DNA from: Candidatus Zixiibacteriota bacterium
GTDB taxonomy: Bacteria; Zixibacteria; MSB-5A5; GN15; JAAZOE01
DNA length: 64,000 nucleotides
Reading direction: 5' to 3'
Assembly (NCBI GenBank): GCA_043819555.1
Contig: JBDREQ010000063.1
Coordinates: 117,486-181,485 of the forward strand
Part shown: positions 24,090 through 42,804 of the stretch, one piece after another
Layout: each line of letters starts with the position of its first letter
Numbering within the stretch: position 1 is the stretch's first letter
The notes under the pieces: generated by a model
The model's input: only the letters and a program-made list of their open reading frames with translations
The model's database searches: none
What the model was told of the DNA's origin: nothing
Translations under genes and position numbers: made by a program

Positions 24090-24101
24090 GAGGATAAATT
24101 T

Positions 24102-25256
24102 ATGTCCCGAGTGGGAATTATTGGAATAGGACATGGAGAATTCGGGCGCAGGAGCGATGCCACCGTTCAGGAGCTGGCTTTTGAGGCGTATCGCGACGCC
24201 GTGCATGACGCCGAGATTGATCCCAAAGAAATTGACGGCTCGGTCATCGGTTCGGTTCCCGAATATCATAAACAGCGATCATTGCCCGGAGTCGTTCAGG
24301 AATATCTGGGATTAAATCCCAAACCGACGTGGCTGACGGAAGTCGCCTGTTCATCGGGAAGCGCGGCGATCCGGACAGCCTGGATGGGGATCAAATCAGG
24401 GGCTCACCAATTAATGGCCGTTATCGGATGCCAGAAAATGACTGAGCTTTCAACACCGGAAATTTTGGCCCTGATGGGCCGGGTCGGCGAAGTCCAATGG
24501 GAATCGGTTTTCGGCACGACTTTTCCGGCTTATTACGCTTTGTTTGCTAAAAGCCACATGCATAAATTCGGCACGACAAGAGAACAGCTTTTACAGGTAG
24601 CGGTCAAGAATCATTTTTACGGAGCAAAGAATCCCAACGCCTTATTCAGGAAAGAAATCACGATTGAAAAAGCTCTGGCTTCCGATCCGGTATCGGATCC
24701 TTTTCAGGTTTATGATTGTTGTGCCAATGCCGATGGAGCTGCTTGCGTGATTGTAGCGTCGGAAGAAATCGCGAAAAAATCAAAAAAACCGGTAGCATGG
24801 CTCGACGGTATGGGATGCGCGACTTCGAGTATGTCGGTTTTGCGCCGTCCCGATCTGGTCGGACTTCCCAGCGCCGCGGAAGCATCGCGGATTGCCTATG
24901 AAATGGCCGGCGTGAATGCCAAAAATATCAAAGTAGCCGAAGTGCATGACTGCTTTACGATTGCTGAAATTATGGCGTATGAAGACCTCGGTTTTTGCGC
25001 CAAAGGCGAAGGCGGTAAACTCATCGAGAACAAACAATCGTATATCGGCGGTTCGACTCCAGTAAATGTCGATGGCGGATTAAAATCCAAAGGTCATCCG
25101 ATTGGAGCGACCGGAGTTTCGATGACAGTTGAAATCGTCAAACAGCTTCGCGGTGAAGCGGGTGAGAGGCAGGTTCCGGATGCCGATATTGGACTGACTC
25201 ACAACGTCGGCGGCATCGGGCAGTATTGCTTTGTTCAAGTTCTGAGGAGGGATTAG
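24102..25256 (+). CDS. SCP2/archaeal-type thiolase-like protein
   Basis: ACSSGS (Cys retained), EVHDCF, GHPIGATG, HNVGG. Confidence 0.9.
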   Translation: MSRVGIIGIGHGEFGRRSDATVQELAFEAYRDAVHDAEIDPKEIDGSVIGSVPEYHKQRSLPGVVQEYLGLNPKPTWLTEVACSSGSAAIRTAWMGIKSGAHQLMAVIGCQKMTELSTPEILALMGRVGEVQWESVFGTTFPAYYALFAKSHMHKFGTTREQLLQVAVKNHFYGAKNPNALFRKEITIEKALASDPVSDPFQVYDCCANADGAACVIVASEEIAKKSKKPVAWLDGMGCATSSMSVLRRPDLVGLPSAAEASRIAYEMAGVNAKNIKVAEVHDCFTIAEIMAYEDLGFCAKGEGGKLIENKQSYIGGSTPVNVDGGLKSKGHPIGATGVSMTVEIVKQLRGEAGERQVPDADIGLTHNVGGIGQYCFVQVLRRD

Positions 25257-25260
25257 GCTT

Positions 25261-25713
25261 ATGTTTAAATGGTTCGGGAAAGTGAATTTTTCTCCCTATA
25301 CTAAAGTCTCCGATTTTGCCAATCACCTTAAAGATGGCCGCCTTATGGGTTCCAAATGTAAAAAATGCGGAACCGAATCGTTTCCTCCCAAGGCCGATTG
25401 CAGCAATTGTCTATCGGGTGATTTTGAGTTTATCGAAATGTCAGGTCAGGCCAAGCTTGTTTCTTATACCGTTATTCACGCCGCTCCGACCGGTTTTGAG
25501 GATGTTGTTCCCTACACCATTGGGGTTGTGGATTTAAAAGAAACAGGCAGGCTTTTGGCATGGATTGGAGATACTGTCGCCGCCGATAAAATCGAAATCG
25601 GTATGGAGCTTCAGGTTGTACCGCAGATATTTGATGAACTCGAAGAAATTAAAGTCTATTATTCGCTGGAAAAGCCAGGGACCAAATGGTCTAAAGGCAA
25701 TTCGATGACTTGA
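25261..25713 (+). CDS. DUF35 Zn-ribbon/OB-fold thiolase partner
   Basis: CKKCG..FPPKADCSNC, SYTVIH..P.GF...PY, IEIGM. Confidence 0.9.
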   Translation: MFKWFGKVNFSPYTKVSDFANHLKDGRLMGSKCKKCGTESFPPKADCSNCLSGDFEFIEMSGQAKLVSYTVIHAAPTGFEDVVPYTIGVVDLKETGRLLAWIGDTVAADKIEIGMELQVVPQIFDELEEIKVYYSLEKPGTKWSKGNSMT

Positions 25714-25738: not shown

Positions 25739-25768
25739 AAAGGAATCCCAAAACGGGATTCCTTTTTA
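25739..25768. terminator. Bidirectional terminator between convergent operons
   Basis: AAAGGAATCCC-AAAAC-GGGATTCCTTT. Confidence 0.85.
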
Positions 25769-25795: not shown

Positions 25796-26572
25796 CTACT
25801 CGTTTTTCCATTCCGGTTTGCGGCGCTCGAGAAAAGAATTGATACCCTCGTTGGCGTCGTTCGTATCCATCAATTCGTCGATATAGAGTTCTTCAAGTTT
25901 ATCCAGTCTCTTTTTCAAGGTTTTGTTGAATTGTCCTCGAGCTGCCCTGACTGCGAATTTCAGAGACGACGCGCTTTTGGGCAGGATATATTTCTCGACC
26001 CAGCCATCCACGCCGGACATCATCGCATCCCGGTCATCAAATACTTCTGTCGCCAAACCCATCTGAAGAGCGACATCGGGTTTGATAATACGTCCGGTCA
26101 AAAGCAAATCATCGGCGCGGGCTTGCCCGATTTTCATTGGAAGAATTACTGATGCCGGAGGCGCGAATACAGCAAGGCTGATTTCCGGCTGTCCCAATCG
26201 CGCTGTTTGGTCGAGAAACATGAAATTGCACATCAAAGCCAATTCCATCCCGCCGCCCAAACATTGACCCGAAACCAATGCAGCTGTCGGGATTGCCAAA
26301 TCTGCCAGAGTATAAAACAGTGCGTGAAATTGTTTGAGCATTTCCGGCGCTTTTTCTTTGGTATGTTCGGGAACGCTGGCCCCGAAACAGAAATGCTCCC
26401 CCTCACCGGTAAATTGAATGAGTTTCACCTGGAGCTGATCTTTCAATTCCTTCAGCGTATTTTGAATATCATCCATCATAACCGCATCGAGAACATTCCC
26501 TTTGTGGGAATTAAGAATAATTCGCACGATTTGATTATCATGCGAATATTGAACGTCGATTTTTTTGGCCAT
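25796..26572 (-). CDS. dch: Cyclohexa-1,5-diene-1-carbonyl-CoA hydratase (Dch/BzdW-like)
   Basis: Crotonase with GNVLD, HFCFGASVPEH, CLGGGMEL, GQPEISLAVFAP, ELYIDELM...ANEGI; adjacent to oah and had. Confidence 0.88.
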   Translation of the reverse strand: MAKKIDVQYSHDNQIVRIILNSHKGNVLDAVMMDDIQNTLKELKDQLQVKLIQFTGEGEHFCFGASVPEHTKEKAPEMLKQFHALFYTLADLAIPTAALVSGQCLGGGMELALMCNFMFLDQTARLGQPEISLAVFAPPASVILPMKIGQARADDLLLTGRIIKPDVALQMGLATEVFDDRDAMMSGVDGWVEKYILPKSASSLKFAVRAARGQFNKTLKKRLDKLEELYIDELMDTNDANEGINSFLERRKPEWKNE

Positions 26573-26575
26573 CTT

Positions 26576-27664
26576 CTATCCCTTCGGTAAAATGGCGTCG
26601 AGCATTTCATCATCCCATGGATGACCTTCGGCCAGCATCAAACGCAGCTTAATGAAATCAACTTCGCGATTGTGTTTTGGACCTTCGTTGAACGCCCGGA
26701 ACCCTGCTTTGGCTTCGGTCATCATATTCAAGCCGAGCCAGTCGCGGTTTGACTGCTGATTGCGATCCCAATGCTCAAGTTTTTTCTTCCGCATACTGTT
26801 TACTGTTTTATTGATACAGTCAGGCATCATATAGAGCAGCTTTGTGCACAGAACATTCACGGCATCATCAAGGGGAGCAAGATCAATAGTACCGCCTGCC
26901 ATCATCTCTTTGCCTTTTTTGTAATCGTCGCCTGATTTGCGTTTACCATAGACGATATCACCGGATTCATCGAGCCATTTATCAGTCACCAGAAGCGGAT
27001 TGCGCACAAATTTATTATCGACTTTCAAAACGGGAATGGCATCGGTGATAAGGCCGATGGTTTTGGCTTCATAAGCGGTCCACATTTCGCAAAGAGTGCA
27101 GCTCTGCATTGCCCTTTCAATACCTACAAACAGATGCAGAAAATCGGTGCTTCCGCCTTCGGGAGCGCTGCCGTGCTTGGGTCCGGCTTGTCCAAAGACA
27201 GACAGATCGCTGGCGATGGCAAAATCGCAGGCCATCCCGATTTCCTGTCCTCCGGCGATGCGCATACCGTTAACGCGGCAGATGACAGGTTTATCACACA
27301 TCAGAATACTGGTAATCATGTCATTGAAAAGACGCATATACTGCTTGTATTCCAGCGGGCGGCCCGTATAATACTCGGCGTATTCCTTGGTATTGCCGCC
27401 GGTACAAAAAGCTTTGTCGCCCACGGCTGTAAAAACAACCGCCACGACCGAACGGTCATTGGATGCTTGCCGGAACGCAAGGATGACCTCTTTAACGGCG
27501 GCAGTTGTGTACGAATTATACTGCTTGGGATTATTCAAAAATATCCAGGCGTTGAAAAGCCCAGAAACTTCTTTGCCCTCTTTATCCAGGCACGGGCGGC
27601 GTTCATAGATAATTTCCTTAAAATCGACTTCCACAAGATTATGGCTGTTTAGTTCTAAGCTCAT
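26576..27664 (-). CDS. oah: 6-oxocyclohex-1-ene-1-carbonyl-CoA hydrolase (Oah/BzdY/BamA)
   Basis: NNPKQYNSYTT, FCTGGNTKEYAEYY, GQEIGMACD, GPKHGSAP, WLGLNMMTEA. Confidence 0.95.
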   Translation of the reverse strand: MSLELNSHNLVEVDFKEIIYERRPCLDKEGKEVSGLFNAWIFLNNPKQYNSYTTAAVKEVILAFRQASNDRSVVAVVFTAVGDKAFCTGGNTKEYAEYYTGRPLEYKQYMRLFNDMITSILMCDKPVICRVNGMRIAGGQEIGMACDFAIASDLSVFGQAGPKHGSAPEGGSTDFLHLFVGIERAMQSCTLCEMWTAYEAKTIGLITDAIPVLKVDNKFVRNPLLVTDKWLDESGDIVYGKRKSGDDYKKGKEMMAGGTIDLAPLDDAVNVLCTKLLYMMPDCINKTVNSMRKKKLEHWDRNQQSNRDWLGLNMMTEAKAGFRAFNEGPKHNREVDFIKLRLMLAEGHPWDDEMLDAILPKG

Positions 27665-27718
27665 TCTCCTGTTCCTCCTTTATATCCGGTATGTTTTCAT
27701 TTCAAATTAATTATCAAA

Positions 27719-28774
27719 TCAAAAATCGGGAGTCAAAACCGATCGTTTCAAAAGTTTATGCTCCAACGTTTTCTTGAATATATCATTAATTTGCGAAAGC
27801 GGGAAGGTGTCGGTAAACGGTTTCAGTTTCAGTTTACCATCGGCGACCAATTTAATGACGTCATTGTATAGTTCCGGCTTGCATCCCCACGTTCCGATAA
27901 TCTGGGCATCAAACGCCATCAAATTACTCAATCGTACTTCCAGTTTATCAAGCGTAAAACCAACGACCGATAGAACTCCGGCAATACCCAGCAGACCAAA
28001 ACCGAGTTCTTGACCCGGTTTGGTTCCCGATGTCTCGAATATTTTCCAGCCGTGGGGCGGTGCGCCCATTTCTTTGCAGGCCGCTTTGACAGCTCCTTTG
28101 ATTGCCTTGAAGTCCATGTCTTTGATATTCAAGGTTGACGTTATGCTTATGTCCCCCAACTGGTCGAGTTTTTTCTGGTCGATATCAAGCGCGAGGACGT
28201 TGGCTCCCACGATATTGGCAAGTTGGGCGGCATATATGCCAATTCCGCCAACTCCGATTACGATAGCGAAATCACCGGCCTTAAGGCCGCTTTTGACAAT
28301 AACCTGATATGGCGTCGAAACCGCATCGGCAATAACCGATAATTCAGCAAGAGAATGTTCCGCTAATGCCGCGTCGGGAACCTCTGCCAAAAATCGCGAT
28401 GGCACTGTGATATGGCTGGCGAATCCGCCGTGAAAATCGTTTCCGGGCATCAACTGATTGCGGCAAATATTGCCTCGCCCGGCTTTACACAGGTCGCATT
28501 CTCCACAAGGGAGTACGGCTGGGATGATGACCGGTTTTCCTTTTAGTTCAGCTGGACCGTCTATTACAATGCCGCTGATTTCGTGTCCCAGAACAAGGGG
28601 CAGTTGCTTTTTTGTTGGAACACCGTAATGCCAAAAGCTCAAATCAGTATGGCAGACTCCGCAGCCGGCGATTTCGACCATGGCATCATCGGCTTTCACT
28701 TCGGGCGGATCAAATTCAACAAGCTCAAACGGCTGATCTTTGGCAACCATCTGATAGGCTCGAATTTTATCCAT
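27719..28774 (-). CDS. had: 6-hydroxycyclohex-1-ene-1-carbonyl-CoA dehydrogenase (Had/BzdX)
   Basis: Zn-ADH CGVCHTD, GHE, CGECDLC; family-typical MPGNDFHGGFASH and LSNLMAFD...WGC. Confidence 0.93.
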   Translation of the reverse strand: MDKIRAYQMVAKDQPFELVEFDPPEVKADDAMVEIAGCGVCHTDLSFWHYGVPTKKQLPLVLGHEISGIVIDGPAELKGKPVIIPAVLPCGECDLCKAGRGNICRNQLMPGNDFHGGFASHITVPSRFLAEVPDAALAEHSLAELSVIADAVSTPYQVIVKSGLKAGDFAIVIGVGGIGIYAAQLANIVGANVLALDIDQKKLDQLGDISITSTLNIKDMDFKAIKGAVKAACKEMGAPPHGWKIFETSGTKPGQELGFGLLGIAGVLSVVGFTLDKLEVRLSNLMAFDAQIIGTWGCKPELYNDVIKLVADGKLKLKPFTDTFPLSQINDIFKKTLEHKLLKRSVLTPDF

Positions 28775-28826: not shown

Positions 28827-29774
28827 TCAATGTCCGATATCCGGCAATTCCATCAAATGCACCTGCGCCGTTATGGTTTTGTTAACCGGAGTTGAAATAC
28901 CATGCTTGAGACCATACTCGACTATTTTTCCATTCAGATAATCAACTTCGGTTGGCGCTCCGGCATCGATATCGACCCACATTGACGGCCGGTGATGGCC
29001 GGCCTTTTTTAGATATCCGATACAAAAATCAGCAAAGTCTTCTCTGAATTTGATGTTTTCTTTTGCGGCCACGGCCACCCCTTCATCTATTATACCCCGG
29101 ACGATCTCAACCGATAAATCAAAATCCATAACCTGCTTCATGGTTTTGCCGGTGATGGCGCACATCGCGCTGAGAGATGAGTTTAGAATAACTTTTTCCC
29201 AGACATAGAACAATATGTCTTCAGGAATTTCAGTTTTTAAATTAGCGGAATTCAAAAGATTAGTAACAGTCTTGACCATCTCTTCAGATTTCGGCGACAA
29301 TGCAGCGACATAGTTCGGCGGATTGAAAAAAGTAACATTGACGAGATCATTATTCTCGACGCCTCCGGCATAATTGACTACCATCCGCATTGCTTTCTCA
29401 GGGCCAAATACTCGAACCGCTTCTGCTTCAGCATCAAGGCCATTCTGTGCGCACAGGACATACAATTTATCCGACGCGATTCGCGATAGCTGCGCCATTA
29501 CTTTTTCGTTAGCAGTAGTCTTGACAGATACAACAGCCAGATCGAGATCATGCGTTTTTAGTTTATCAATAGAGGTACAAATATCAGAAACATCGGTTTT
29601 GAATTCAATTGTATTCGACAGTCTGATACCCGAATTCTCAATATTTTCCATTCGTTCAGGTATTATATCGCAGGCAACAACATATACTCCAGCTTTGGCA
29701 AAATGAGCCGCCAATACTGATCCGACAGGCCCCATACCAATCACGGCGACTCGTAGATTTTTATTTTCAGCCAT
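28827..29774 (-). CDS. panE: Ketopantoate reductase (PanE/ApbA) family 2-oxoacid reductase
   Basis: GMGPVG, VK, QNGL, WEKVILN, PSMWVD, TEVDYLNG. Confidence 0.85.
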   Translation of the reverse strand: MAENKNLRVAVIGMGPVGSVLAAHFAKAGVYVVACDIIPERMENIENSGIRLSNTIEFKTDVSDICTSIDKLKTHDLDLAVVSVKTTANEKVMAQLSRIASDKLYVLCAQNGLDAEAEAVRVFGPEKAMRMVVNYAGGVENNDLVNVTFFNPPNYVAALSPKSEEMVKTVTNLLNSANLKTEIPEDILFYVWEKVILNSSLSAMCAITGKTMKQVMDFDLSVEIVRGIIDEGVAVAAKENIKFREDFADFCIGYLKKAGHHRPSMWVDIDAGAPTEVDYLNGKIVEYGLKHGISTPVNKTITAQVHLMELPDIGH

Positions 29775-29789
29775 ATATTTATCCCCCGA

Positions 29790-31202
29790 TTATGTTCCCA
29801 GTTTGATTTTTCTATTATCAAATAAAGGTACCGCAAAAAACGTCAAAAGGCTTATTATCCAGCAAAAATAAATTGGATGCACCAGGCCAAAACTCTTGAA
29901 AAATGCCGGTATCTGCGGGACTAATAGCCATATTACCAGCGCCGCCATGGCCATCAGCAATGTCCAGGTCGCATGTGAGCGGCGGCAGATGCCGGGCCAG
30001 AATAAGGTCATCAAGGTTACCAGCGTATAAGCCGTCGTCAGGGTTAAACCGATAAGCAAAGTTTTCAATATTCCTGAAACGGATACGGCCAGTATATATG
30101 TGAATACGCTTAATACCAAAATAGATAAGCGCGAGTAAACCCGTTCTTTTTGTTCAGACAAATTAGGCGAGAAAAAGCGTTTGATTATATCACCGACAAC
30201 CAGCGTGGCGCTGCCCAACAACAAAGCCGACGCGGTCGATACATCGGCTGCCCACAGCCCGGCCAGGATTATTCCGGCGACAAATGGGCTTAAACTCAAG
30301 ACCATGCGGGGCAAGGCTTCGGTAGGAATAATACCGGGATGCTGAATAGCCGCGGCGATGCCGATTATGGCGCTTACAAACCCAACCGGAAAAATTATAA
30401 AGGCTCCCAGAATGAATCCATTACGCGCGGCTCTGGAATTTTTGGCGGCGAAACTTATCTGGACGATTGATTGCACGGAAAAAGTCGTCGTACACATAAC
30501 GACGAACCAGGCAATGATGAGTCCCCATCCCAACGCACCCAGATCAAAGCCGGGATGTTCGACCGGGAGTTTGGAAATTATCTCTCCGAACCCGCCAACT
30601 TTATCAACCGCCATGACAGCGCCCAAAATAACTCCAGCGTAGATGAAAATCACGTTGATGATGTTAGTCAAACCTGCCGCCCAGAAACCTCCTATTAATG
30701 TAATACCGACGAACACCACCGCCGTAACCAGCATGCCTGATTGAAAAGTGAAAACTTCCGGTAATAGAGATGACAGTATCGCTCCGCCTGCGACATATTG
30801 AAGTGATGTGATGACTATCTGAAGTGTCAATTGACCAACAACGCCGATAACTCGCCCGGATGTATTATAATATTTTTCAAATAACTCAGGCAGGGTGGCT
30901 ACTTCCAGCTTGCGATATCTCTGTGCGGCGAACAGTCCGACTAATAAGGCACCGGCGGCCCAGGCGGCATTATACCAACCGGCTGAAATGCCGGAATTGT
31001 AAGCCCGCTCGGCGACCCCGATAGTGGAAGCTCCACCAATCGCAAGTCCGGTCAGCAGCGGCGCAATTACCCAGGCCGGCAAGCGGCGTCCGGCCAAAAG
31101 ATAACCTACCATTCCTCCCCGGCTGAGATGACGCGACATCCAAGTGATAACATAGAGTAGAATGATATAAATACATACGATTATGAGCGGAATCCAATTC
31201 AT
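29790..31202 (-). CDS. Sodium:solute symporter (SSS) family transporter
   Basis: About 13 TM helices, YLLAGRRLP, IGGASTIGVAE, TLPELFEKYY, AADVSTAS. Confidence 0.9.
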   Translation of the reverse strand: MNWIPLIIVCIYIILLYVITWMSRHLSRGGMVGYLLAGRRLPAWVIAPLLTGLAIGGASTIGVAERAYNSGISAGWYNAAWAAGALLVGLFAAQRYRKLEVATLPELFEKYYNTSGRVIGVVGQLTLQIVITSLQYVAGGAILSSLLPEVFTFQSGMLVTAVVFVGITLIGGFWAAGLTNIINVIFIYAGVILGAVMAVDKVGGFGEIISKLPVEHPGFDLGALGWGLIIAWFVVMCTTTFSVQSIVQISFAAKNSRAARNGFILGAFIIFPVGFVSAIIGIAAAIQHPGIIPTEALPRMVLSLSPFVAGIILAGLWAADVSTASALLLGSATLVVGDIIKRFFSPNLSEQKERVYSRLSILVLSVFTYILAVSVSGILKTLLIGLTLTTAYTLVTLMTLFWPGICRRSHATWTLLMAMAALVIWLLVPQIPAFFKSFGLVHPIYFCWIISLLTFFAVPLFDNRKIKLGT

Positions 31203-31266
31203 AGCCCAATCATCCCTGCATGATTAGCGATAAGCCATTACCTCCCCAAATAAAACTCTTACGCCT

Positions 31267-33345
31267 CTATATTTTCAAACGCGCATCAACTACCTCAACA
31301 CCATAGCCAGCCTCAAACGCGAAGACCGGATTCAAATCCATTTCTTTGATTTCCGGGAAATCGGATGTAAGCTGGGAAATCCTAAGAAGCGTTTCGGCCA
31401 GCTTATCGATATCGACCGCCTTTTCGCCTCTGAAGCCTTCTAATATCCGATAGCCCTTGATTGAAGAAATCATATTATTGGTATCCTGCTCAGAAAGCGG
31501 AGCGAGGCGGATCTGAACGTCTTTCAAAACCTCAACAAAAACGCCGCCGAGACCAAACATAATCGTCGCGCCCAAGCCTTCGTTTGCCTGAGCTCCGATG
31601 ATAATTTCCTTGCCTTCCTTGCGGAATTCCTGCACGACAAATGAAGGCTTGAACTTGCCGAATTTCTTTGACATTTCATCGAATGCCGATATCAATGCCG
31701 CTTCGTCTTTGAGATTGAGATATACTCCGCCCTCGTCAGATTTATGAACAATTTCCTCAGCATCAACTTTGAGTACCAATGGATAGTGCATCTTCGCGGC
31801 CTGTTTGACAAGCTCGTCCTTTGTTTGCACCTTAATAGTCTTGACTGTAGGAATCCCATAACTTTTCAACAATGCGAAAACATCGGCCTGCGGGAGGAAT
31901 TTATCCTGCCCTCGATATTTATCAATAATATCCTTAGCGGTTTTTTTATCGAAGTCGTAAGTTCTGTATTTGGGTTCTTCTCGCCGGATAATCCGGCCGT
32001 ATTTTATCATTGCGTTCAGCGCTTTTGAAGCCGATTCCGGGAAATCATAGACCGGGATCCCGCTCTCGCGAATCAGCCTGACAACTTCGCCGAATTTCTC
32101 CTCGATTGTCAGGATTATGCAGACGATTGGTTTGCTTGCCGTTTTACCAATCTCTGCCAGTTTATGCGCGACCGCTTCACAATCAACAAACGGTGGTGTG
32201 ACAAAATTGAGAATTAGCGAATCGATATTAGGATCTTTCAAGAGCGCATCAACTGTCCCGCCATACTCTTTGGCCCCAGCTGTCGCGATAACATCGACCG
32301 GATTGGATACGATGGCTTCAGAAAATAAAAGCTCACCAAGCGTTTTGGATGTTTCCGGGCTGAGTTTAGCCAGTTTGAGGCCGGATTTTATGCATTCATC
32401 AACGGCAATGATGGCCGGGCCGCCGGTATTGGTGACGATTACGATATTTTCAGATTTTGGAATCGGCTGAGTGGACAGCGCGATGGCCGCTTCAATCATT
32501 TCCTGTTGATTATCAAAGCGCATCACGCCTGCTTTTTCAAAGATGGCATCAGCCAGAGTATCCTGCTCGATAAGCGAACCGGTATGAGATGCCACAGCGG
32601 CGACGCCTTCGGTGGTACGTCCGGTTTTGACAGTCAATATCGGAGTGTTTTTGGTTACACGGTTGGCAACTTCGAGAAATCCGGCCGGGTCTTTAATAGT
32701 CTCAATGTGAGTCATGATGACTTTGGTGCCTTCATCCTGACCATAATAATCAATGATTTCATTCATGCTGACATCAGCCTCGTTGCCAAAGCTGGCATAC
32801 ATCCGCGTACCGATTCCGATATTATAAAGCTGTAGTTTCAGAGTTTCGCCAACCCCGCCGCTTTGCGCTACGATAGAGATATTTCCCGCTATTTGAGGCA
32901 CAAAAGTGAAGTTAGCATACACGGAAACATCGGGATCGGAATTTTGTATGCCCTGCGAGTTAGGGCCATAGATTCGCATGCCATATTTATGAGCAACTTC
33001 GACTATCTTCTTTTCAAGCTCAAATCCTTCTTTACCGACTTCCTTGAATCCGGCTGTATGGACAATTGCGTATTTAATGCCCTTTCTGCCGCAATCTTCC
33101 AAAACGACCGGTACCAAAGTGTTTTTGATCGATATATTGACTAGATCGATTTCATCGGGTACATCCATAACCGATGCGTAGGTCTTAAAACTTTTAATAT
33201 GTTTCGATTTGGGATTGATAGGGTAGATAGGGCCCTTAAAGTTATGGTCAACCAGATTTTGTATAACGATATGGCCAATACTTAAAGGATTATTTGAAGC
33301 TCCAATAATTGCCACTGACCTGGGCTTGAACAAACCGTCAAGCAT
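31267..33345 (-). CDS. ADP-forming acyl-CoA synthetase (ACD, fused alpha-beta)
   Basis: PRSVAIIGAS, YPINP, GPN, QSG, ASHTGSL (phospho-His), TNTGG, NPVD, ATP-grasp HKSDEGGV, DLNP; no GNAT domain. Confidence 0.9.
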   Translation of the reverse strand: MLDGLFKPRSVAIIGASNNPLSIGHIVIQNLVDHNFKGPIYPINPKSKHIKSFKTYASVMDVPDEIDLVNISIKNTLVPVVLEDCGRKGIKYAIVHTAGFKEVGKEGFELEKKIVEVAHKYGMRIYGPNSQGIQNSDPDVSVYANFTFVPQIAGNISIVAQSGGVGETLKLQLYNIGIGTRMYASFGNEADVSMNEIIDYYGQDEGTKVIMTHIETIKDPAGFLEVANRVTKNTPILTVKTGRTTEGVAAVASHTGSLIEQDTLADAIFEKAGVMRFDNQQEMIEAAIALSTQPIPKSENIVIVTNTGGPAIIAVDECIKSGLKLAKLSPETSKTLGELLFSEAIVSNPVDVIATAGAKEYGGTVDALLKDPNIDSLILNFVTPPFVDCEAVAHKLAEIGKTASKPIVCIILTIEEKFGEVVRLIRESGIPVYDFPESASKALNAMIKYGRIIRREEPKYRTYDFDKKTAKDIIDKYRGQDKFLPQADVFALLKSYGIPTVKTIKVQTKDELVKQAAKMHYPLVLKVDAEEIVHKSDEGGVYLNLKDEAALISAFDEMSKKFGKFKPSFVVQEFRKEGKEIIIGAQANEGLGATIMFGLGGVFVEVLKDVQIRLAPLSEQDTNNMISSIKGYRILEGFRGEKAVDIDKLAETLLRISQLTSDFPEIKEMDLNPVFAFEAGYGVEVVDARLKI

Positions 33346-34123
33346 CGAGACCTCCTTTGCCGTTTATAGAATAAAGAGCCGCTCCAAAAGCTCCTGTTAA
33401 CTGAGGATGAGGGGGAACATGAACTTTTTGCCCGATTCTTTCCTCGAACATTTTTACCAGATAGGGATTATGGGCGATAACGCCCCCGCTCATCACGATA
33501 TTCCCGTCCATAGTATCCATTTCCAAAACTCTTTTTATAACTGAAATAAAAATGCCCTTAACGATATCCGCGACCGCAACTCCTTCTCGAATGCGCGCCA
33601 AAATTTCCGTTCCGGTAAAGACAGTGCAATAACTGCCAATGGGAACAGTATTTTCCGCTCTTTCAGCCAATTCGTTTAATTGTCCCAGAGGAATTCTCAG
33701 GCGGTTGGCGATTTCTTCCAAAAACGCGCCTGTGCCGGCGGCGCATTTGCGATTCATTTTGAAATTTGTACGTTTTCCGCTATCATCGATTTTTATAGTT
33801 TTGCTATCCTGTCCGCCGATGTCAATCAAAGTCTGGGTAAAGGGGAAATAATGATAACTACCCGCTGCATGACAACTGATTTCGGTCATGGTTCCCCTCG
33901 CGAATGGGATATTGTTGCGTCCATATCCGGTAGCGGTAACGATTACACCATCGGGATTTTTACATTGGCACATATCACAGGCGGCGCCAAAAGCCTGTTT
34001 GCCGGCTTTTTCAAAATCGGCCCCCGAATCGACAACAGCATTTCCGATGATTTCACGGTTATCATCAATAATGACAGCCTTGGTTGTTGAGGCCCCGATA
34101 TCAATTCCTGCGTAATAATCCAT
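33338..34123 (-). CDS. ATP-dependent CoA-substrate-specific enzyme activase (HgdC/HadI/FldI-like)
   Basis: GIDIGASTTK, ATGYGR, EISCH, DIGGQDSK, MNRKCAAGTG, CTVF. Confidence 0.92.
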   Translation of the reverse strand: MDYYAGIDIGASTTKAVIIDDNREIIGNAVVDSGADFEKAGKQAFGAACDMCQCKNPDGVIVTATGYGRNNIPFARGTMTEISCHAAGSYHYFPFTQTLIDIGGQDSKTIKIDDSGKRTNFKMNRKCAAGTGAFLEEIANRLRIPLGQLNELAERAENTVPIGSYCTVFTGTEILARIREGVAVADIVKGIFISVIKRVLEMDTMDGNIVMSGGVIAHNPYLVKMFEERIGQKVHVPPHPQLTGAFGAALYSINGKGGLDA

Positions 34124-34157
34124 AAAATATCGATTTATCTATAATGCATCGCGAAAT

Positions 34158-35402
34158 TTATCTTGAATCCAATTGTTCGATAAAGGCTTCAATATTGGTT
34201 TTCGCCTGTTCTTCCGAATAACATCGCAAATCGTTGAGATCGCCATTGATTGTCAGCGTCGGTATGCTCAGTTTCTTCGTCAACCGTTCGGGCATGCCGT
34301 AACGGCAGTTGGAATTATTAGGGCAAGTTTTGGAATCATGAAATACGATTCCATCAAGTTTAAATCTATCCACAATATCTTCGATATATTTTTCCTTGAA
34401 ATCCTCATCACGAACGATAAATATCTCAGTGTAGGCGCGAGCCATGCTCAAGAATGGGTCTTTAGGATCAAAGGCATTGAATATCCAACTATTGCAATAG
34501 GTCGATGCGATAACGGCCGTATTAAAACTGATAAAAAATTCGGACAGGTCGCGGAGCTTGCCCCAGATCGGCATACCTTCCCAGTAAAGTCTAAATTTTT
34601 CATCTTCGACCGCGCCGGTATTATTTGCGACTCGTTCTTCCAGTTCTTTAAGAAGCAGCTCGTAATACTCGTTGGCAGTATTTGATCCCCGCAGTACAAC
34701 CGCCGGACCCATGTGAATAGTGGCGTCGAAGAAACTCATCGGTGCGGGCGAGGCAGTATTAGTTTCCAAAACTTTTTTCCACAATTCACTGCATTTTTTG
34801 GAACGAGCCATGACTTCCCTAAATTTATCGATATCAAATCTATTGCCAGAAATTTTCTCGAGTGTCGGGATCAGTTCTTTTATCTGATGAACGATGCCGG
34901 ATAAAACGCCGTCGGATACGTCTCCGATATTCCGAAAAGTGGAAATTCCGATTATGGGAGCGTTAAACTCTCTCGCGTACCACGATAACCAATCCTGAAC
35001 ATCGCGGCATTGATTGGTGTTAAATACTAAAACATCCGGTTTGGGAACCCCTTCGATGCCTTTGTAAGCCATAGATAACGGCGTTTGTTTTTTCAAATAG
35101 GAACCGATATCGCTGGTCAGGTATGAGCAGATATCCGGAGAATAACCAATCGCGTTTGCGGCGGGGATTAAATTGGGCGCCATTCTCGTCGCCCCCAGCA
35201 TGGCGCCATGATTTTCGGGATAATAGACTTTGAATCCCATGCTCAATAAAAGCTCGGCCGGGCCAACGCTGGTGCACCAGGCGACTTTTTGAGAATCATC
35301 CTGAGCGGCGGCATCCAGTTCATAAAAATAATCCGCCATTATTTTTTTCAACTGTCCGGTAGCGGCGATTTTTTTTATGCCAGTTTTTTTCTCTTCGCCC
35401 AT
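34158..35402 (-). CDS. 2-hydroxyacyl-CoA dehydratase family subunit (HGD-D domain)
   Basis: VAWCTS..PAELL, YPENHGA, DICSY, NQCRDV..W, RLYWEGMPIW, DGIVFH..TC, INGDLND, IEAFIEQL. Confidence 0.88.
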   Translation of the reverse strand: MGEEKKTGIKKIAATGQLKKIMADYFYELDAAAQDDSQKVAWCTSVGPAELLLSMGFKVYYPENHGAMLGATRMAPNLIPAANAIGYSPDICSYLTSDIGSYLKKQTPLSMAYKGIEGVPKPDVLVFNTNQCRDVQDWLSWYAREFNAPIIGISTFRNIGDVSDGVLSGIVHQIKELIPTLEKISGNRFDIDKFREVMARSKKCSELWKKVLETNTASPAPMSFFDATIHMGPAVVLRGSNTANEYYELLLKELEERVANNTGAVEDEKFRLYWEGMPIWGKLRDLSEFFISFNTAVIASTYCNSWIFNAFDPKDPFLSMARAYTEIFIVRDEDFKEKYIEDIVDRFKLDGIVFHDSKTCPNNSNCRYGMPERLTKKLSIPTLTINGDLNDLRCYSEEQAKTNIEAFIEQLDSR

Positions 35403-35521: not shown

Positions 35522-35740
35522 TTAATTTTTCTTCCGCGTAAAAATCATTACGGTTTTGTCGTTTTTATCCTCAAAACATACGTTACAGCCGCCGCAATCA
35601 AGATCGCGAACCGCTACGGTTTTGATTTCGAATCCCAGCATCTCATAATTCTCAAGCGCTTCTGCAAGCCTTGGACCCGATGCTGTAAATTGAGGATTCC
35701 AGCCGTCCGCTTTCAATTTTTCAATAGATATGTTATCCAT
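35522..35740 (-). CDS. Small hypothetical protein with CxxCxxC motif
   Basis: 72 aa, start overlaps the bzdV stop (TGATG); GW..QF.ASGPRL.E...YE.LGFE and CGGCNVC. Confidence 0.75.
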   Translation of the reverse strand: MDNISIEKLKADGWNPQFTASGPRLAEALENYEMLGFEIKTVAVRDLDCGGCNVCFEDKNDKTVMIFTRKKN

Positions 35741-38268
35741 CAGAAAAGATCATCCAAATCATCTTCCCCGCCGCCACCGCCCGGCATTTCTCCATGCTCC
35801 TGCAAATATTGCTGAATAAGTTCGCTTTCGCGTTTGGTGTACATCGGATCTTCTTCCCAGATAAACCACCTGGCTTCACCGGGATTTCCCAGACATTCGC
35901 TCAGGCCGTTACGGATATTACTCACGCCCGAAATGCGAATAACTTTTTTACTCTCATCCAGCAATCGAAAAACACCTTCAGCATTGGGCAGGGATTCAAT
36001 CGATTCTTGATTTAACGGAAGCCACGGTTCAGGTGGTAAAGTCACCGGAGATATTCTTTGCCTTTGATAGCATTGCAGACAACGCCGTGACTCACGGACG
36101 GCATGCTCTTCATCCATCGTAACAGTTATTAGATTAAAATTGCTTTTTCTTTTTTCCGGATTGACCGAATCAACCACTGTTCGAGAATGCTGGAATGCAT
36201 CATGCGGGATTTCTATTCGGGAATACTCGTATTCCGAGTTGTTAAAATCAGGTTCTGGGATTCCCGAACCTCCGAGAAATTTGTCAATTCGGTCGACCGC
36301 AATTCGTCCTTCGGCAATGGCATCAATGACCGACGTCGGCCCCCGCATAACATCGCCGGCGACAAAAACATTTTCTGATACTTCAATATCAATGGCCTGC
36401 TCGATGTTTATTCCGAATTTATCTGAGAAATAACTGTTTAACTTTTCATCAACTTCCTGCCCAATAGCGACGATGGCTGCCTCGGCGGCAATTTCTTTGC
36501 TTTCGTTTTCATCAAACTGAGGATTAAATCGGTTTTTTTCATCAAAGACTCGTGTACAACGAATGAATTCTATTCCGGCAAGTTTTTCTCCGTCGCTGAT
36601 GAATTTTCTTGGGCCCCAGGAATTCTCAATTTTGATTCCTTCCTCTTCGGCCTGTGCTATTTCCCACTTATGAGCAGGCATTTCTTCTCTGGATTCAAGG
36701 CAAACCAAAGTTACTTCATTGGCACCCAACCTGCTGGCTGTCATGGCGGCATCAATAGCGACATTCCCTCCGCCGATGACTATTACTTGTCCGGTAAGTT
36801 TTGGTTCATGCGACAGTTTGGCTGACTTTAGAAAATCCAGTGCTGGATAAATACCGTTTAAATTCGAATTTTCGATATTTAATATTTTACTTGCCGATAC
36901 ACCCGCCGCAATTAGCATCGCATCGTATCCATCAGCTTTTAATTTGTCTATTCCCGCCGTATCGCCAAATTCATTATTAGGATGAATTTTAATTCCCAGT
37001 TTTTCGATAGTTTTCAATTCACGGTCAAGAATATCCTGCGGCAATCTATAATCAGGAATGCCATGGCGGAGCATCCCGCCCGGCTGGTTTTCCTTTTCAA
37101 ATATCTCAACCGCATGGCCCTGCATTGCAAGATAATAGGCCGATGTCAATCCTGCCGGTCCAGAACCGATAATCGCGATTTTTTTTCCAGTACTTTGTTT
37201 TTTATTTGATAACAGAAAATCAAGATGCCCGACTTTCTCGGCCGCAAAACGTTTCAGATCGCATATCGCTACCGGCTTATCGATCTCACTTCGGCGACAA
37301 CCAGATTCACAGGGATGAAAACATACATACCCAAGAATACCCGGAAAAGGAACCTTGGCGCAAATTACTTCAAGCGCCTTTTGATATTCGCCTCGTGCGA
37401 TAAAATGCAAATAGCGGGGAATATCAATCCCGGCCGGGCATGAAGAAACGCAGGGGAGAGCCTTACCGGCCTGAACCGGAGTTACACCTTCTTTATCGCG
37501 CATGGCTCCCGTTGGGCAAATTTCGATACATGCTCCACAGTTGCGACAAATACTTTTTTCTGAATCTGTTTCGTCATTGAAACCAATCCAGGCGCCGCTA
37601 TCTTTCCAGACAGCTCCGAGAATATCTGCTTGATGAATATCATCGCAAATTCTGACGCATCGCAGGCATCCAACACATAAATTATAATCGCGGATAAAGA
37701 ACGGTACATTGGATGAAATTGGCCGGTTTTGTGGAATATACTTTGGCGTTTCACCGGGAATGCCGATGTAATCGCTGATTTTTTCAAGTTCGCAATGTCC
37801 CAATAGGGGGCAGCATCTTTCATTCACAGGAACATTTGATGAGCAATCGGTACGGCTGCATCCTTCTTTTTGGGCGCAGGTCAGACAGGCATGGGGGTGA
37901 TCTGATAAAATCTTACTTAAGGAATCTCGGCGTTTTTTGATTAATTTTTCAGATGTAGTGGAAATGTTCATCCCATCGATGACTTCAGTCACACAGGAAT
38001 TCACCGGTTCCGGTTGGCCATCAACTTCAACAATACATAAATTACAATGGCCGTTTTCTCCCGCTGATTCGTCTGTTTTCTCCGAGTTGATTTCAATATT
38101 TGTCTGATATATCGAGTCGGCCCACGTGACTTTATCTGAGGGAGAAATATCGGGATGGTGACACAAACGCGGGATATAGATCCCTGCGCCGTCGGCAACT
38201 TCGAGGATTGTTTTTCCCTCTGCAGACGAGACACTCACACCATCGATATTTATTTTGATATCAGGCAT
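35740..38268 (-). CDS. bzdV: BzdV-like NAD(P)H:ferredoxin oxidoreductase (NuoG-like FeS N-terminus, GltD-like FAD domain, small C-terminal domain)
   Basis: IPRLC..CNLC..SC, HPHACLTC, two CxxCxxC ferredoxin motifs, CVSSCPAG, GSGPAG, GGGNVAID, AGD; follows bzdM. Confidence 0.8.
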   Translation of the reverse strand: MPDIKINIDGVSVSSAEGKTILEVADGAGIYIPRLCHHPDISPSDKVTWADSIYQTNIEINSEKTDESAGENGHCNLCIVEVDGQPEPVNSCVTEVIDGMNISTTSEKLIKKRRDSLSKILSDHPHACLTCAQKEGCSRTDCSSNVPVNERCCPLLGHCELEKISDYIGIPGETPKYIPQNRPISSNVPFFIRDYNLCVGCLRCVRICDDIHQADILGAVWKDSGAWIGFNDETDSEKSICRNCGACIEICPTGAMRDKEGVTPVQAGKALPCVSSCPAGIDIPRYLHFIARGEYQKALEVICAKVPFPGILGYVCFHPCESGCRRSEIDKPVAICDLKRFAAEKVGHLDFLLSNKKQSTGKKIAIIGSGPAGLTSAYYLAMQGHAVEIFEKENQPGGMLRHGIPDYRLPQDILDRELKTIEKLGIKIHPNNEFGDTAGIDKLKADGYDAMLIAAGVSASKILNIENSNLNGIYPALDFLKSAKLSHEPKLTGQVIVIGGGNVAIDAAMTASRLGANEVTLVCLESREEMPAHKWEIAQAEEEGIKIENSWGPRKFISDGEKLAGIEFIRCTRVFDEKNRFNPQFDENESKEIAAEAAIVAIGQEVDEKLNSYFSDKFGINIEQAIDIEVSENVFVAGDVMRGPTSVIDAIAEGRIAVDRIDKFLGGSGIPEPDFNNSEYEYSRIEIPHDAFQHSRTVVDSVNPEKRKSNFNLITVTMDEEHAVRESRRCLQCYQRQRISPVTLPPEPWLPLNQESIESLPNAEGVFRLLDESKKVIRISGVSNIRNGLSECLGNPGEARWFIWEEDPMYTKRESELIQQYLQEHGEMPGGGGGEDDLDDLF

Positions 38269-38344
38269 TAGCGACTGACTTTCAATTATAAGAATCCCGT
38301 CCTGGCCGCCCCAATAAAGCGGTCAGGATAAACGAAAAATGCTA

Positions 38345-38626
38345 TTACCACGAATGCGAAACCGCTTCGAGGGTACAAGCCTCAACGCATGGCAGAGGCG
38401 GTCGTTCTCCGGTCGGTTTGCACGGGCCGCAATCGTATTTCACTTTTTTGCGAAACTCTTCCTTGATCGCCGCGACTTCATCATCATAATCGTCCACAAT
38501 CATTTCAAACATACCGATCGGACAGGCCGAAATGCAGGCATGATGTTCACATTCGATGCACTTATCGGTATCGATAGTAATGAAAAAATCACCGCTTCCA
38601 TCCATATATCCATAGTTAGCTTTCAT
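38345..38626 (-). CDS. bzdM: Benzoyl-CoA reductase-associated ferredoxin BzdM
   Basis: ANYGYMDGSGDFFITIDTDKC, ACP, KYDCGPCKP...LPCVEAC...HSW. Confidence 0.88.
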   Translation of the reverse strand: MKANYGYMDGSGDFFITIDTDKCIECEHHACISACPIGMFEMIVDDYDDEVAAIKEEFRKKVKYDCGPCKPTGERPPLPCVEACTLEAVSHSW

Positions 38627-39513
38627 GCTGACGCTTTCTTCCTTTGTTTTTCCATTAATGCTTTGGCGAACAAAGCGGCACCAAAAGCTCCGGCAATCTG
38701 AGTGTCGTATTTCGATTTGAGAGCGGTTACGTTTAGTTCTTTCTCGAGGCGTTTGACGACGCCGGCGTTTTTGGCAATTCCTCCGGTTATGGCAAAATCC
38801 GTCTCAACGCCGACCCGTTCCAATAACGAAACAACGCGATGAGCCATAGCCGAGCAGTAAGCTGCCAAAACTCTCTTTTTTGACCAGCCTTCACGCAAAA
38901 GTGAAGACGCTTCCGATTTGGCAAAAACGACACAGGTCGAAGAAACCGGCGGCGGTTCTTCTTCAACATCAAGAGACATCTCACCGACTTCCTCAATCGG
39001 AATCGCCAGAAGATCAGCGAAAACCTCCATGCCTCGTCCGGTTCCAGCGGCGCACTTATCATTCATGAGGAAGTTTTTGACTTTGCCTTTTTCATCGCAC
39101 AGGATCGCTTTACAATCCTGTCCGCCCATATCGAGAATAGTCCGAACGGTATTGCCGTACATCAAATTGCCGCCACGGGCATGGCATGCGATTTCAGTAA
39201 TAGCCCGATCTGCAAACGGTACATTGACGCGCCCATATCCGGTTCCAACGGTGTAATGCACATCAGCAATTGTCAATCCGGTATTTTCCAGCGCCCAGTT
39301 CATGGCATTTTTGGCGCTGTTGGGGCTGTCTGAACCGGTGCGCATATTGGAGTACGCGTAAAGCTCCCCATCCAGAAGTATGACCGCCTGCGAGCTTACC
39401 GAACCGACATCGACTCCTGCCGAGATAATATCAGCGCTTTTGGGATCTTTGTTTTCATCGTGCCAGTTATATTCTTTCCAGCGCCAGAATTCTTTTTTAT
39501 TCTCCGTCATCAT
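38623..39513 (-). CDS. bzdQ: Benzoyl-CoA reductase bzd-type subunit Q (activase module)
   Basis: EFWRWKE N-terminus, GVDVGSVSSQ, MRTGSDSP, GTGYGRVNVP, NDKCAAGTGRG. Confidence 0.93.
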   Translation of the reverse strand: MMTENKKEFWRWKEYNWHDENKDPKSADIISAGVDVGSVSSQAVILLDGELYAYSNMRTGSDSPNSAKNAMNWALENTGLTIADVHYTVGTGYGRVNVPFADRAITEIACHARGGNLMYGNTVRTILDMGGQDCKAILCDEKGKVKNFLMNDKCAAGTGRGMEVFADLLAIPIEEVGEMSLDVEEEPPPVSSTCVVFAKSEASSLLREGWSKKRVLAAYCSAMAHRVVSLLERVGVETDFAITGGIAKNAGVVKRLEKELNVTALKSKYDTQIAGAFGAALFAKALMEKQRKKASA

Positions 39514-40283: not shown

Positions 40284-40321
40284 TTATCCTCCTCTATATA
40301 AAATCTATTTTTCAAATTAAA

Positions 40322-41638: not shown

Positions 41639-41661
41639 TTATTCTCCCTTTCTTGTAATCA

Positions 41662-42786: not shown

Positions 42787-42804
42787 AATCCTCCTGTAGC
42801 TTTT

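Follow-up and report, generated by a model that had tools for sequence, protein, structure and literature searches.

A window of 64,000 nucleotides (the whole stretch of DNA analyzed here) from a Candidatus Zixiibacteriota bacterium (assembly GCA_043819555.1, contig JBDREQ010000063.1, positions 117,486 to 181,485 of the forward strand) holds a cassette of five genes at 28827-35402, inside a bzd run for benzoyl-CoA catabolism. On balance, and on the strength of sequence comparison, we favor the reading that this cassette is one version of a portable module that would convert an aromatic 2-oxo or 2-hydroxy acid to an enoyl-CoA and thereby feed the benzoyl-CoA pathway. Judging from the gene context, the substrates are likely phenylpyruvate or phenyllactate, and probably also their 4-hydroxy forms. 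The initial annotation had proposed such a funnel from aryl-lactates to benzoyl-CoA; its logic held in every comparative test that we ran, while the substrate it named stays a deduction from sequence. The five genes and the parts of the cluster that adjoin them were as follows.

34158-35402, minus strand: HGD-D protein, 414 amino acids (aa); PF06050 HGD-D, E 3.8e-63
33338-34123, minus strand: acyl-CoA dehydratase activase, 261 aa; PF01869; TIGR00241, 219 bits against a cut-off of 125
31267-33345, minus strand: fused alpha-beta ADP-forming acyl-CoA synthetase (ACD), 692 aa; CoA_binding_2, Succ_CoA_lig, Ligase_CoA_2 and ATP-grasp_5
29790-31202, minus strand: SSS symporter, 470 aa; PF00474 SSF
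28827-29774, minus strand: PanE-family reductase, 315 aa; ApbA and ApbA_C; TIGR00745, 178.8 bits against 141.35
25796-28774, minus strand: had, oah and dch of the lower benzoyl-CoA pathway; TIGR03201 440 bits and TIGR03200 570 bits, both above cut-off
35740-43416, minus strand: tetR, bzdNOPQ and a bzdV-like oxidoreductase, upstream of the five-gene set

Coordinates and domains agree with the earlier description of five co-oriented, tightly spaced genes of these families between bzdV and had-oah-dch. From 5' to 3', the genes of the set are first 34 bp apart, then overlap by 8 bp, and are then separated by 64 bp and 15 bp. Beyond the PanE-like gene, had, oah and dch continue the run at distances of 52, 54 and 3 bp, and a terminator-like hairpin (25739-25765) lies directly past dch; the gap between the bzdV-like gene and the set is 337 bp. 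The products of bzdN, bzdO and bzdQ exceeded the curated cut-offs (514, 739 and 455 bits to TIGR03190, TIGR03191 and TIGR03192), and dch fell below its own (TIGR03189, 224 bits against 292.5). The gene at 39510-40283 had TIGR00241, the activase domain model, as its only match (202 bits) and owes the name bzdP to its position alone, and the bzdV-like oxidoreductase is an 842-aa Fer2/Fer4/GltD-like protein. A sigma-70-like site with 12 of 12 consensus positions was located at 43479-43451, upstream of the tetR-bzd run, by a consensus scan that carries no evidence of function. Four relatives have the complete set with its gene order unchanged, and 2 further relatives have its core, indicating that the arrangement is not due to chance. 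The synteny that the initial annotation suggested looking for was seen for the full set in these 4 relatives; across phyla, the make-up of the set varied.

Protein families of the cassette

The 414-aa protein is of the catalytic alpha/O/B type of the HGD-D family. Its best match in the PDB was the HadB alpha subunit 3o3m_A (175 bits, residues 22-414), followed by MbdO (130 bits) and BzdO (87 bits). Cys92, Cys132 and Cys360 were conserved in at least 90% of 30 aligned rows and aligned with cysteines of HadB and MbdO; we take these residues to be the ligands of a [4Fe-4S] cluster. The protein scored far below the equivalog models of benzoyl-CoA reductase (BCR), namely TIGR02260 for BcrB (155 bits against 487) and TIGR03191 for BzdO (84 against 449), and its match to the double-cubane equivalog NF040772 (59 bits against 350) covered the C-terminal part only. 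A quick maximum-likelihood tree (115 rows) placed all 12 module proteins, together with 3 fusion proteins, in one clade of 30 rows (SH-aLRT 100), which stands apart from the BzdO, BcrB-like and HadB-nearest (P0189, 512 bits) clades. By these sequence features, the protein is a candidate (R)-2-hydroxyacyl-CoA (aryl-lactyl-CoA) dehydratase without a beta partner gene.

The protein had earlier been called a dehydratase subunit; the family assignment stands, but the implied partner does not, as no beta gene was present anywhere we searched. The genome, which is 97% complete, contains three PF06050 genes, i.e., bzdN, bzdO and the gene of the 414-aa protein. Bearers of the module among 41 relatives likewise contain three each, with two in the fragmented genome G007. 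A profile search of all open reading frames returned a single HGD-D frame in 77 of 80 related loci, and the other 3 loci hold BCR subunits. In the closed 4.1-Mb chromosome G042 and in G045, the module HGD-D gene is the sole PF06050 gene. No beta-subunit paralogue was detected in the genome itself, in the 80 related loci or in the closed chromosome, and there was no alpha-beta fusion among 16 longer HGD-D relatives. A predicted complex of the HGD-D and PanE-like proteins scored 0.00, which is uninformative in both directions. We also considered the PanE-like protein as a structural stand-in for, or replacement of, the beta subunit; this idea was weakened by an unrelated GlcD/FeS/CCG protein that occupies the same slot elsewhere, once as a fusion, and by a correlation of just r 0.54 between PanE and HGD-D identities.

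To judge by its sequence, the 261-aa protein is an ATP-dependent single-gene activase of the HgdC/HadI type, and it scored 133 bits against a cut-off of 380 with the BzdQ model TIGR03192. The ACD carries PF13380, PF13607, PF19045 and PF13549 in one chain and matched best 8wzu_A, a 4-hydroxybutyrate-CoA ligase [ADP-forming] (487 bits, residues 5-690). Every substrate-specific NCBIfam equivalog remained below cut-off (573 bits against 1300), and the enzyme is a candidate activator of a 2-hydroxy (or 2-oxo) aryl acid. It may also be the activator of benzoate. Despite its full Bzd-type reductase cluster, the 97% complete genome is without a benzoate-CoA ligase equivalog or PaaK. The symporter scored far below the cut-offs of PanF (TIGR02119, 77.8 bits against 328) and PutP (TIGR02121, 89.4 against 515.5) and reached 129.7 bits against 184 with the sss superfamily model. 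It accompanies the ACD in Zixibacteria-like and Aminicenantes loci at 73-82% identity and is, by homology, a candidate importer of the acid substrate.

The 315-aa protein, the only strong ApbA match in its genome, exceeded the TIGR00745 cut-off at the subfamily level, and all equivalog models were below cut-off. Its nearest PDB neighbors reached 74-79 bits, and E. coli ketopantoate reductase (KPR) 27 bits. The GxGxxG motif, Asp36, N111, K194, S264, D268 and E276 were kept in 23-25 of 25 PanE-like rows, fusions included, and in 24-25 if Asp36 is left aside; the catalytic roles of N111, K194 and E276 are presumably those of E. coli KPR. By general Rossmann-fold rules, Asp36 suggests that the domain uses NADH. 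We regard the protein, by its family, as a candidate aryl-pyruvate reductase, or D-2-hydroxyacid dehydrogenase, dependent on NAD(P)H.

Related loci, fusions and the link to benzoyl-CoA catabolism

The closest homologues carry the labels Zixibacteria and Aminicenantes. More than 7,000 proteins reached E<=1e-100 in the protein search, and a genome scan with one genome per species yielded 577 relatives. By both counts, the module is abundant; its radical enzyme is widespread among microbes of sediments. From the genome scan, we retained the 80 best loci, at 57-83% identity. A search for sequencing runs with the cassette, RNA included, listed none. Their bearers are named as Zixibacteria, Ignavibacteria, Aminicenantes, Desulfobacterales, Desulfomonilaceae, Syntrophaceae, Geobacter, Planctomycetota, Bacteroidota, Acidobacteriota and Thermoplasmata, and one is the cultured strain NaphS2. 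We counted neighbors within 6 kb of the HGD-D gene in the 38 loci with at least 5 kb on each side.

Activase: 35/38 loci
ACD: 23/38 loci
AMP-forming ligase: 6/38 loci
Either CoA-activating enzyme: 26/38 loci
PanE-like: 15/38 loci
GlcD-like FAD/FeS/CCG protein (864 aa): 6/38 loci
Ldh_2 protein: 2/38 loci
Any dehydrogenase: 23/38 loci
SSS symporter: 11/38 loci
Thiolase: 11/38 loci

Over all 80 loci, the dehydrogenase slot was filled by a PanE-like protein in 23, by the GlcD/FeS/CCG protein in 15 and by an Ldh_2 protein in 3, and an AMP-forming ligase stood in place of the ACD in 17. The GlcD/FeS/CCG protein has the architecture of the D-2-hydroxyglutarate dehydrogenase YdiJ and reached 220 bits with that model. 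Three unrelated types of 2-hydroxyacid dehydrogenase in one slot point to a free 2-hydroxy or 2-oxo acid as the common metabolite.

The partnership is also seen within single proteins. A search for proteins longer than 725 aa at E<=1e-60 gave 16 matches. Fifteen of these are PanE::HGD-D fusions, which are 728-772 aa long and come from NCBI, JGI, ENA and Logan; one such cluster has 27 members, and the three fusions that we examined are singletons at 90% identity. The sixteenth (P0391, 1322 aa) joins GlcD/FeS/CCG (41-714) to HGD-D (988-1305). It mirrors the gene order of 15 loci, and it may alternatively be an artefact of read-through. At 11214-13052, L079 (from a Ferruginibacter-labelled metagenome-assembled genome, MAG) encodes a 612-aa PanE::activase fusion between the HGD-D gene and a thiolase gene; had, oah and dch follow, and a Bcr-type reductase lies ahead.

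Sequence identities within the cassette differ between its genes. The HGD-D, ACD and SSS proteins of the window are 70-77% identical to Aminicenantes-like versions, and the HGD-D protein is just 49% identical to the copies of its own order in G007 and G029; the PanE-like protein is about equidistant (52-58%) from all Zixibacteria-like copies outside its own genus. These values suggest that a four-gene block has been exchanged between phyla, and thus that the five genes do not form one evolutionary unit. Judged from the related loci, the unit is the dehydratase, the activase and a CoA-activating enzyme, and the dehydrogenase and the transporter are exchangeable.

The module is associated with benzoyl-CoA catabolism both in its own order and across phyla, in line with the co-occurrence expected earlier. 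Among the 41 relatives, the ring-opening hydrolase Oah (TIGR03200) was present in 7 of 8 bearers of the module and in none of 33 non-bearers, and the contig of the eighth bearer stops just past had. In 50 bearer genomes from several phyla, drawn from the 80 loci and mostly from the longer ones, Oah was found in 43 at E<=1e-60, with 40 above cut-off. In a sample of 121 genomes from the class around G088, Oah occurred in 29 of 37 bearers and in 13 of 84 others, and 71 genomes had neither (odds ratio 19.8); relatives in this sample are not independent, and the test therefore overstates the association. A true Oah lies within the locus, directly past the symporter, in the Aminicenantes-like L034 and L039.

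The reductase found with the module is variously of the Bzd type, the Bcr type or class II (BamB), which indicates a tie to the pathway as such rather than to any single reductase. We rejected the idea that it serves as the ring reductase in genomes without a class I BCR, as G042 and G053 carry BamB (876 and 1234 bits to 4z3w_A). In the Thermoplasmata-labelled archaeal MAG, G044:C21 (the contig of L064) encodes BzdN-like and BzdO-like proteins (305 and 129 bits, PF06050) about 15 kb from the module.

Proposed route and competing readings

According to the route that we propose, the SSS transporter would import the aromatic acid, and the PanE-like enzyme, using NAD(P)H, would convert aryl-pyruvate and (R)-aryl-lactate into each other. 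The ADP-forming synthetase would make the CoA thioester, and reduction and CoA activation could come in either order. With ATP, the activase would charge the [4Fe-4S] cluster of the dehydratase with a single electron of low potential, and this HGD-D protein would then remove water by ketyl-radical chemistry, giving cinnamoyl-CoA or p-coumaroyl-CoA. One round of beta-oxidation by the hydratase, dehydrogenase and thiolase of the cluster would yield benzoyl-CoA (or 4-hydroxybenzoyl-CoA) and acetyl-CoA; the candidates are the thiolase and the 694-aa crotonase protein (14434-17729) and, as a second set, a short-chain dehydrogenase/reductase (SDR) with a BbsAB-like thiolase (23340-25713). BzdNOPQ, Dch, Had and Oah would act on benzoyl-CoA next. 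A reversed indolepyruvate:ferredoxin oxidoreductase (IOR) would let phenylacetate enter the same route, which would fit the enzymes of Desulfococcus multivorans described below. The gene set, its domain families, the lack of a beta-subunit gene, the recurring partners and fusions and the association with Oah can be read from the sequences themselves; the direction of flux and the oligomeric state are, like the substrate, inferred.

The neighbors in some loci point to aryl substrates. In L095-L097, the genes of PanE, activase, HGD-D and ACD are directly preceded by a 621-aa KorA-like gene and those of IorB and a PaaK-like ligase; IorB (197 bits against 206) and PaaK (541 against 646) are slightly below cut-off, and the KorA-like gene, whose family was not scanned, is taken for IorA on account of its length and its position next to IorB. 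The order in L070 is bzdNOPQ, bzdV, ACD, HGD-D, PanE, a HisC-family aminotransferase (304 bits against 277), PanE, mocA, xdhC and korABC. ACT-pair proteins occur in five loci and TRAP transporters in five loci, and a molybdenum hydroxylase whose best family is the 4-hydroxybenzoyl-CoA reductase alpha subunit (721 bits against 995) occurs in 5-6 loci. The genome of the window encodes a similar alpha-like protein on another contig (G000:C73:280130-282355, a 939-aa frame, 973 bits against 994.55). The check for pad genes suggested earlier gave, in this genome, no PadG over cut-off (131 bits against 700), no match to PaaK and no IOR (65 bits at best), and no benzoate-CoA ligase over cut-off either (212 against 375).

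The same chemistry is known in part from other systems. Clostridium sporogenes reportedly has a phenyllactate dehydratase system of FldH, FldA, FldBC and FldI, for which PMC13416013 (section 4.2.3) cites Dickert et al. 2002. The module resembles it in the proposed sequence from aryl-pyruvate through (R)-aryl-lactate and aryl-lactyl-CoA to cinnamoyl-CoA by an ATP-primed HGD-D radical dehydratase. Unlike Fld, it is without an FldC-type beta subunit, has an ADP-forming synthetase or an AMP ligase in place of the FldA CoA-transferase, and has a PanE-family dehydrogenase where Fld has one of the D-2-hydroxyacid-dehydrogenase family; its product would be oxidized to benzoyl-CoA, whereas that of Fld is reduced to phenylpropionate. 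The (R)-2-hydroxyisocaproyl-CoA dehydratase HadBC with HadI (3o3m) is the best solved relative and shares the three aligned cysteines, but the module has no HadC and falls into another clade. The window also differs from the Fld, Had and Hgd systems in that its scanned proteins include no CoA-transferase. The class I BCRs (BzdNOPQ, BcrABCD, MbdO; 8s02, 9g87), which are neighbors in the window, belong to the same superfamily and share the ATP-driven injection of electrons; they have two HGD-D and two ATPase genes, whereas the module has one of each. The double-cubane cluster protein (6eno, 7yyl) is likewise a single HGD-D-type protein with a one-gene activase, but it resembles the N/C (beta) type and the module protein is of the alpha type, the similarity between the two being marginal (E 3e-4). 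The 315-aa protein shares its fold, GxGxxG, N111, K194, S264, D268 and E276 with the PanE-family structures 2ew2, 8wl3, 3wfi and 1ks9, of which 3wfi (PDB title: 2-dehydropantoate 2-reductase) is presumably a D-mandelate dehydrogenase; unlike KPR of this family, it is distributed among genomes in step with the dehydratase rather than with the synthesis of pantothenate.

The initial annotation put the funnel forward as a candidate undescribed one, which goes too far. Table S1 of a proteogenomic study of Desulfococcus multivorans (PMC5109826) annotates Dmul_24850-24880 as including a predicted R-phenyllactate dehydratase alpha subunit, its activator and a putative phenylpyruvate reductase. According to that study, the strain grows on phenyllactate and is without padB and padEFGHI; FadD4, a neighboring ligase, a TRAP system, a hydratase, Hbd5 and a thiolase were formed specifically on phenylacetate and phenylpyruvate; the way to benzoyl-CoA was called unclear; and the genes were read in the direction from phenyllactate to phenylpyruvate. 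The Dmul_24850-24880 cluster has the same order and lengths as Desulfobacterales loci of our set (ACT, PanE-like, activase, HGD-D, AMP ligase); it differs from the cassette of the window in having no ACD and no SSS, and its function is known from annotation only. A conversion of phenylpyruvate through cinnamoyl-CoA to benzoyl-CoA was drawn as a hypothesis for a benzene-degrading sulfate reducer in section 4.2.3 of PMC13416013, where a "singular" FldB-like gene was also remarked on. Beyond these two papers, nothing on the PanE plus HGD-D module came up, and a description of an alpha-only, dehydrogenase-coupled module was not found in the openly searchable literature, with subscription papers (e.g., on Desulfobacula toluolica) outside this search. 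A search by terms found no mention of the module genes in the NaphS2 paper (PMC2988823), and the text passages and one supplement of a Desulfosarcina paper (PMC11887813; Sci Adv 2025) contained nothing on phenyllactate.

We also put forward, more tentatively and with more doubt than conviction, that the alpha-only clade is a new architecture in the BCR/dehydratase family, in which the electron would come straight from the activase, with no beta relay subunit, and the protein would be coupled to a 2-hydroxyacid dehydrogenase, to which it is covalently joined in 15 sequence clusters; together with an ACD or AMP ligase, it would form the missing Pad-independent route through cinnamoyl-CoA to benzoyl-CoA in strict anaerobes. 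These anaerobes would be sulfate reducers, Zixibacteria-like bacteria, Aminicenantes and Thermoplasmata, and the substrates would be phenylalanine, phenylpyruvate and phenyllactate, with phenylacetate entering by a reversed IOR. The reduction may even act on the CoA ester (2-oxoacyl-CoA), and the fused steps would then be consecutive. As a concrete and testable route, the module would bring phenylalanine, phenylpyruvate and phenylacetate to benzoyl-CoA in strict anaerobes that do not have PadBCD and PadEFGHI, the enzymes used by denitrifiers. If true, it would explain the step left unclear in the D. multivorans study (PMC5109826), an additional source of benzoyl-CoA would arise from the decay of protein and plant phenylpropanoids in anoxic sediments, and a beta-free dehydratase would alter our view of how electrons are delivered within this family of radical enzymes. 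Activation by an ADP-forming enzyme would halve the ATP cost of entry, which matters at 2 ATP per ring reduction.

Several points weigh against the reading that we favor, the conversion of an aryl-lactate by the module. To our knowledge, all characterized 2-hydroxyacyl-CoA dehydratases need a beta subunit, and the lack of one implies that the HGD-D protein might catalyze something other than dehydration. Its score with the HadB equivalog NF052455 (226 bits against 750) is low, and the correlation between the pairwise identities of PanE and HGD-D (r 0.54) is moderate. No CoA-transferase domain was found in the 28 scanned proteins of the window, the search being confined to these and not extended to the rest of the genome. 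Within 6 kb, 15 of the 38 well-flanked loci have no dehydrogenase gene and 12 have no CoA-activating gene. Dehydrogenases of the GlcD/FeS/CCG type normally oxidize hydroxyacids, and a flow to the 2-oxoacid therefore fits them better than a flow to the dehydratase. The lower benzoyl-CoA pathway also needs a thiolase and a hydratase, and the presence of such genes thus does not discriminate. Oah was absent from 7 of the 50 bearer genomes and from 8 of the 37 bearers of the class sample, and habitat and kinship inflate the associations between module and Oah. Finally, the D. multivorans genes match loci L092 and L085 in order and lengths, and their orthology is presumed from these.

We weighed three other uses of the same enzymes. 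In the first, which we consider unlikely, the module would perform the same chemistry on aliphatic (R)-2-hydroxyacyl-CoAs (2-hydroxyisocaproyl-, lactyl- or 2-hydroxybutyryl-CoA) in the fermentation of amino acids or lactate, and its benzoyl-CoA neighbors would merely come from anaerobic catabolic islands. HadB of the leucine pathway is indeed the best solved relative, many loci hold HGD-D and activase alone among unrelated genes, and the class-sample bearers without Oah fit such a role; PanE-family enzymes also reduce branched 2-oxoacids. However, the enrichment of Oah in the class sample and across phyla, and the IorAB/PaaK and 4-hydroxybenzoyl-CoA reductase-like enzymes among the neighbors, favor an aromatic substrate, and the proteins nearest to HadB form another clade of the tree. 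In addition, it is to phenylacetate and phenylpyruvate that the D. multivorans cluster responds (PMC5109826).

The second, a reverse hydroxyglutarate shunt, seems to us quite improbable. The HGD-D protein would hydrate glutaconyl-CoA, coming from the lower benzoyl-CoA pathway, to (R)-2-hydroxyglutaryl-CoA, the ACD would cleave the thioester with a gain of ATP, and oxidation by the dehydrogenase to 2-oxoglutarate would allow the adjacent 2-oxoacid:ferredoxin oxidoreductase to re-reduce ferredoxin for the ring reductase. This would account for the genome-wide association of module and Oah, for the korABC sets immediately next to the module both in the window and in L030, L036 and L070, and for the resemblance of the GlcD/FeS/CCG neighbor to YdiJ; ADP-forming synthetases are reversible, and the electron stoichiometry would, by our reckoning, close. 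However, an AMP-forming ligase takes the place of the ACD in 17 of 80 loci, as would suit an activation step rather than a cleavage, the SSS and TRAP importers, the aminotransferase, IorAB/PaaK and the ACT proteins are left over, and the module also occurs with class II reductases. The neighbors in D. multivorans were, moreover, specific to phenylacetate and phenylpyruvate and not to all aromatics (PMC5109826).

In the third, the HGD-D protein and its activase would be an ATP-driven reductase, i.e., a reductive dehydroxylase or dearomatizing enzyme for a substituted benzoyl-CoA, and the PanE-like enzyme would reduce the ketone formed. The HGD-D protein is about as near to the catalytic BCR subunits as to dehydratases (MbdO 130, BcrB model 155, HadB 175-226 bits), the trio lies directly ahead of had-oah-dch in G007 and G029, and some lineages have fusions of PanE to both partners. 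Nevertheless, we think this reading hardly probable, as the single activase gene is of the dehydratase type and there is no N/C subunit of the double-cubane type; GlcD- and Ldh_2-type enzymes of free 2-hydroxyacids take the place of PanE elsewhere; genomes in which the module protein is the sole HGD-D protein carry BamB and need no extra ring reductase; and the clade lies apart from the BzdO and BcrB-like clades.

The alternative raised in the initial annotation, that PanE is a ketopantoate reductase and the symporter imports pantothenate, the cassette thus raising the CoA supply, can be put aside as most improbable: the subfamily score of TIGR00745 and the status of PanE as the only strong family member in a genome with panB would agree with it, but PanE tracks HGD-D and not panB, it is fused to HGD-D or activase elsewhere, and the symporter is far below the PanF cut-off. 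TIGR00745 was found in 8 of the 41 relatives, which are exactly the HGD-D bearers, with one copy per bearer genome, beside the module wherever the contig permits. In comparison, panB was present in 40 of the 41, and 32 of these 40 were without any PanE-family gene.

Flanking genes in the window

Further genes on both strands lie between the cluster and the start of the window.

14434-17729, minus strand: thiolase (402 aa) and a 694-aa protein with a C-terminal crotonase domain; Thiolase_N/C, ECH_1
17908-20140, minus strand: yqeB, xdhC and mocA, molybdenum-cofactor maturation; TIGR03309 307 bits, above cut-off
20261-22817, minus strand: 2-oxoacid:ferredoxin oxidoreductase alpha, beta and gamma; NF006412 506 bits, above cut-off; POR_N, TPP_enzyme_C, POR
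23340-25713, plus strand: SDR, SCP-x-type thiolase and DUF35/OB-fold protein (BbsAB-like); adh_short, Thiolase_C_1, OB_ChsH2_C

The thiolase and crotonase pair lies directly upstream of the HGD-D gene in G003, G009, G012, L020, L021 and L027. The 694-aa protein (14434-16518) has a weak crotonase domain at residues 417-620, and its first approximately 406 residues gave no Pfam and no PDB match; in relatives it is 68-70% identical and is paired with the thiolase next to the module every time. The SDR, SCP-x thiolase and DUF35 trio comes after the module in the Aminicenantes-like loci L034 and L039, and its scores for BbsB (189 bits) and BbsA (53 bits) are both below cut-off.

The 2-oxoacid:ferredoxin oxidoreductase of the window is probably the ferredoxin supply for the ring reductase. 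In L030 and L036, two successive sets of such an oxidoreductase lie between bzdV and the module, with approximately 61% and 50% identity to the korA of the window; one set may supply ferredoxin and the other may act on the aryl 2-oxoacid. The maturation genes include xdhC (TIGR02964, 150.2 bits against 161.6; NF045664, 244.8 against 350) and mocA (TIGR03310, 143.6 against 186.45), all below cut-off, and yet the window is without a molybdenum enzyme.

Directly upstream of the tetR-bzd run, a PAS-repeat protein with a PP2C/SpoIIE phosphatase domain is encoded at 43500-45422 and is a possible sensor for the cluster. A 433-aa protein (45641-46942) gave no Pfam or NCBIfam match and occupies the same place upstream of tetR in G001 of the same genus, at 59% identity. 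Farther on, at 47143-57125, lie genes for large secreted-type peptidases: an S10-like one, a tricorn/S41 one (1114 aa) and an S8 one with a Por secretion tail (987 aa). Their place at the flank of the cluster is consistent with a protein-degrading lifestyle that supplies aromatic amino acids.

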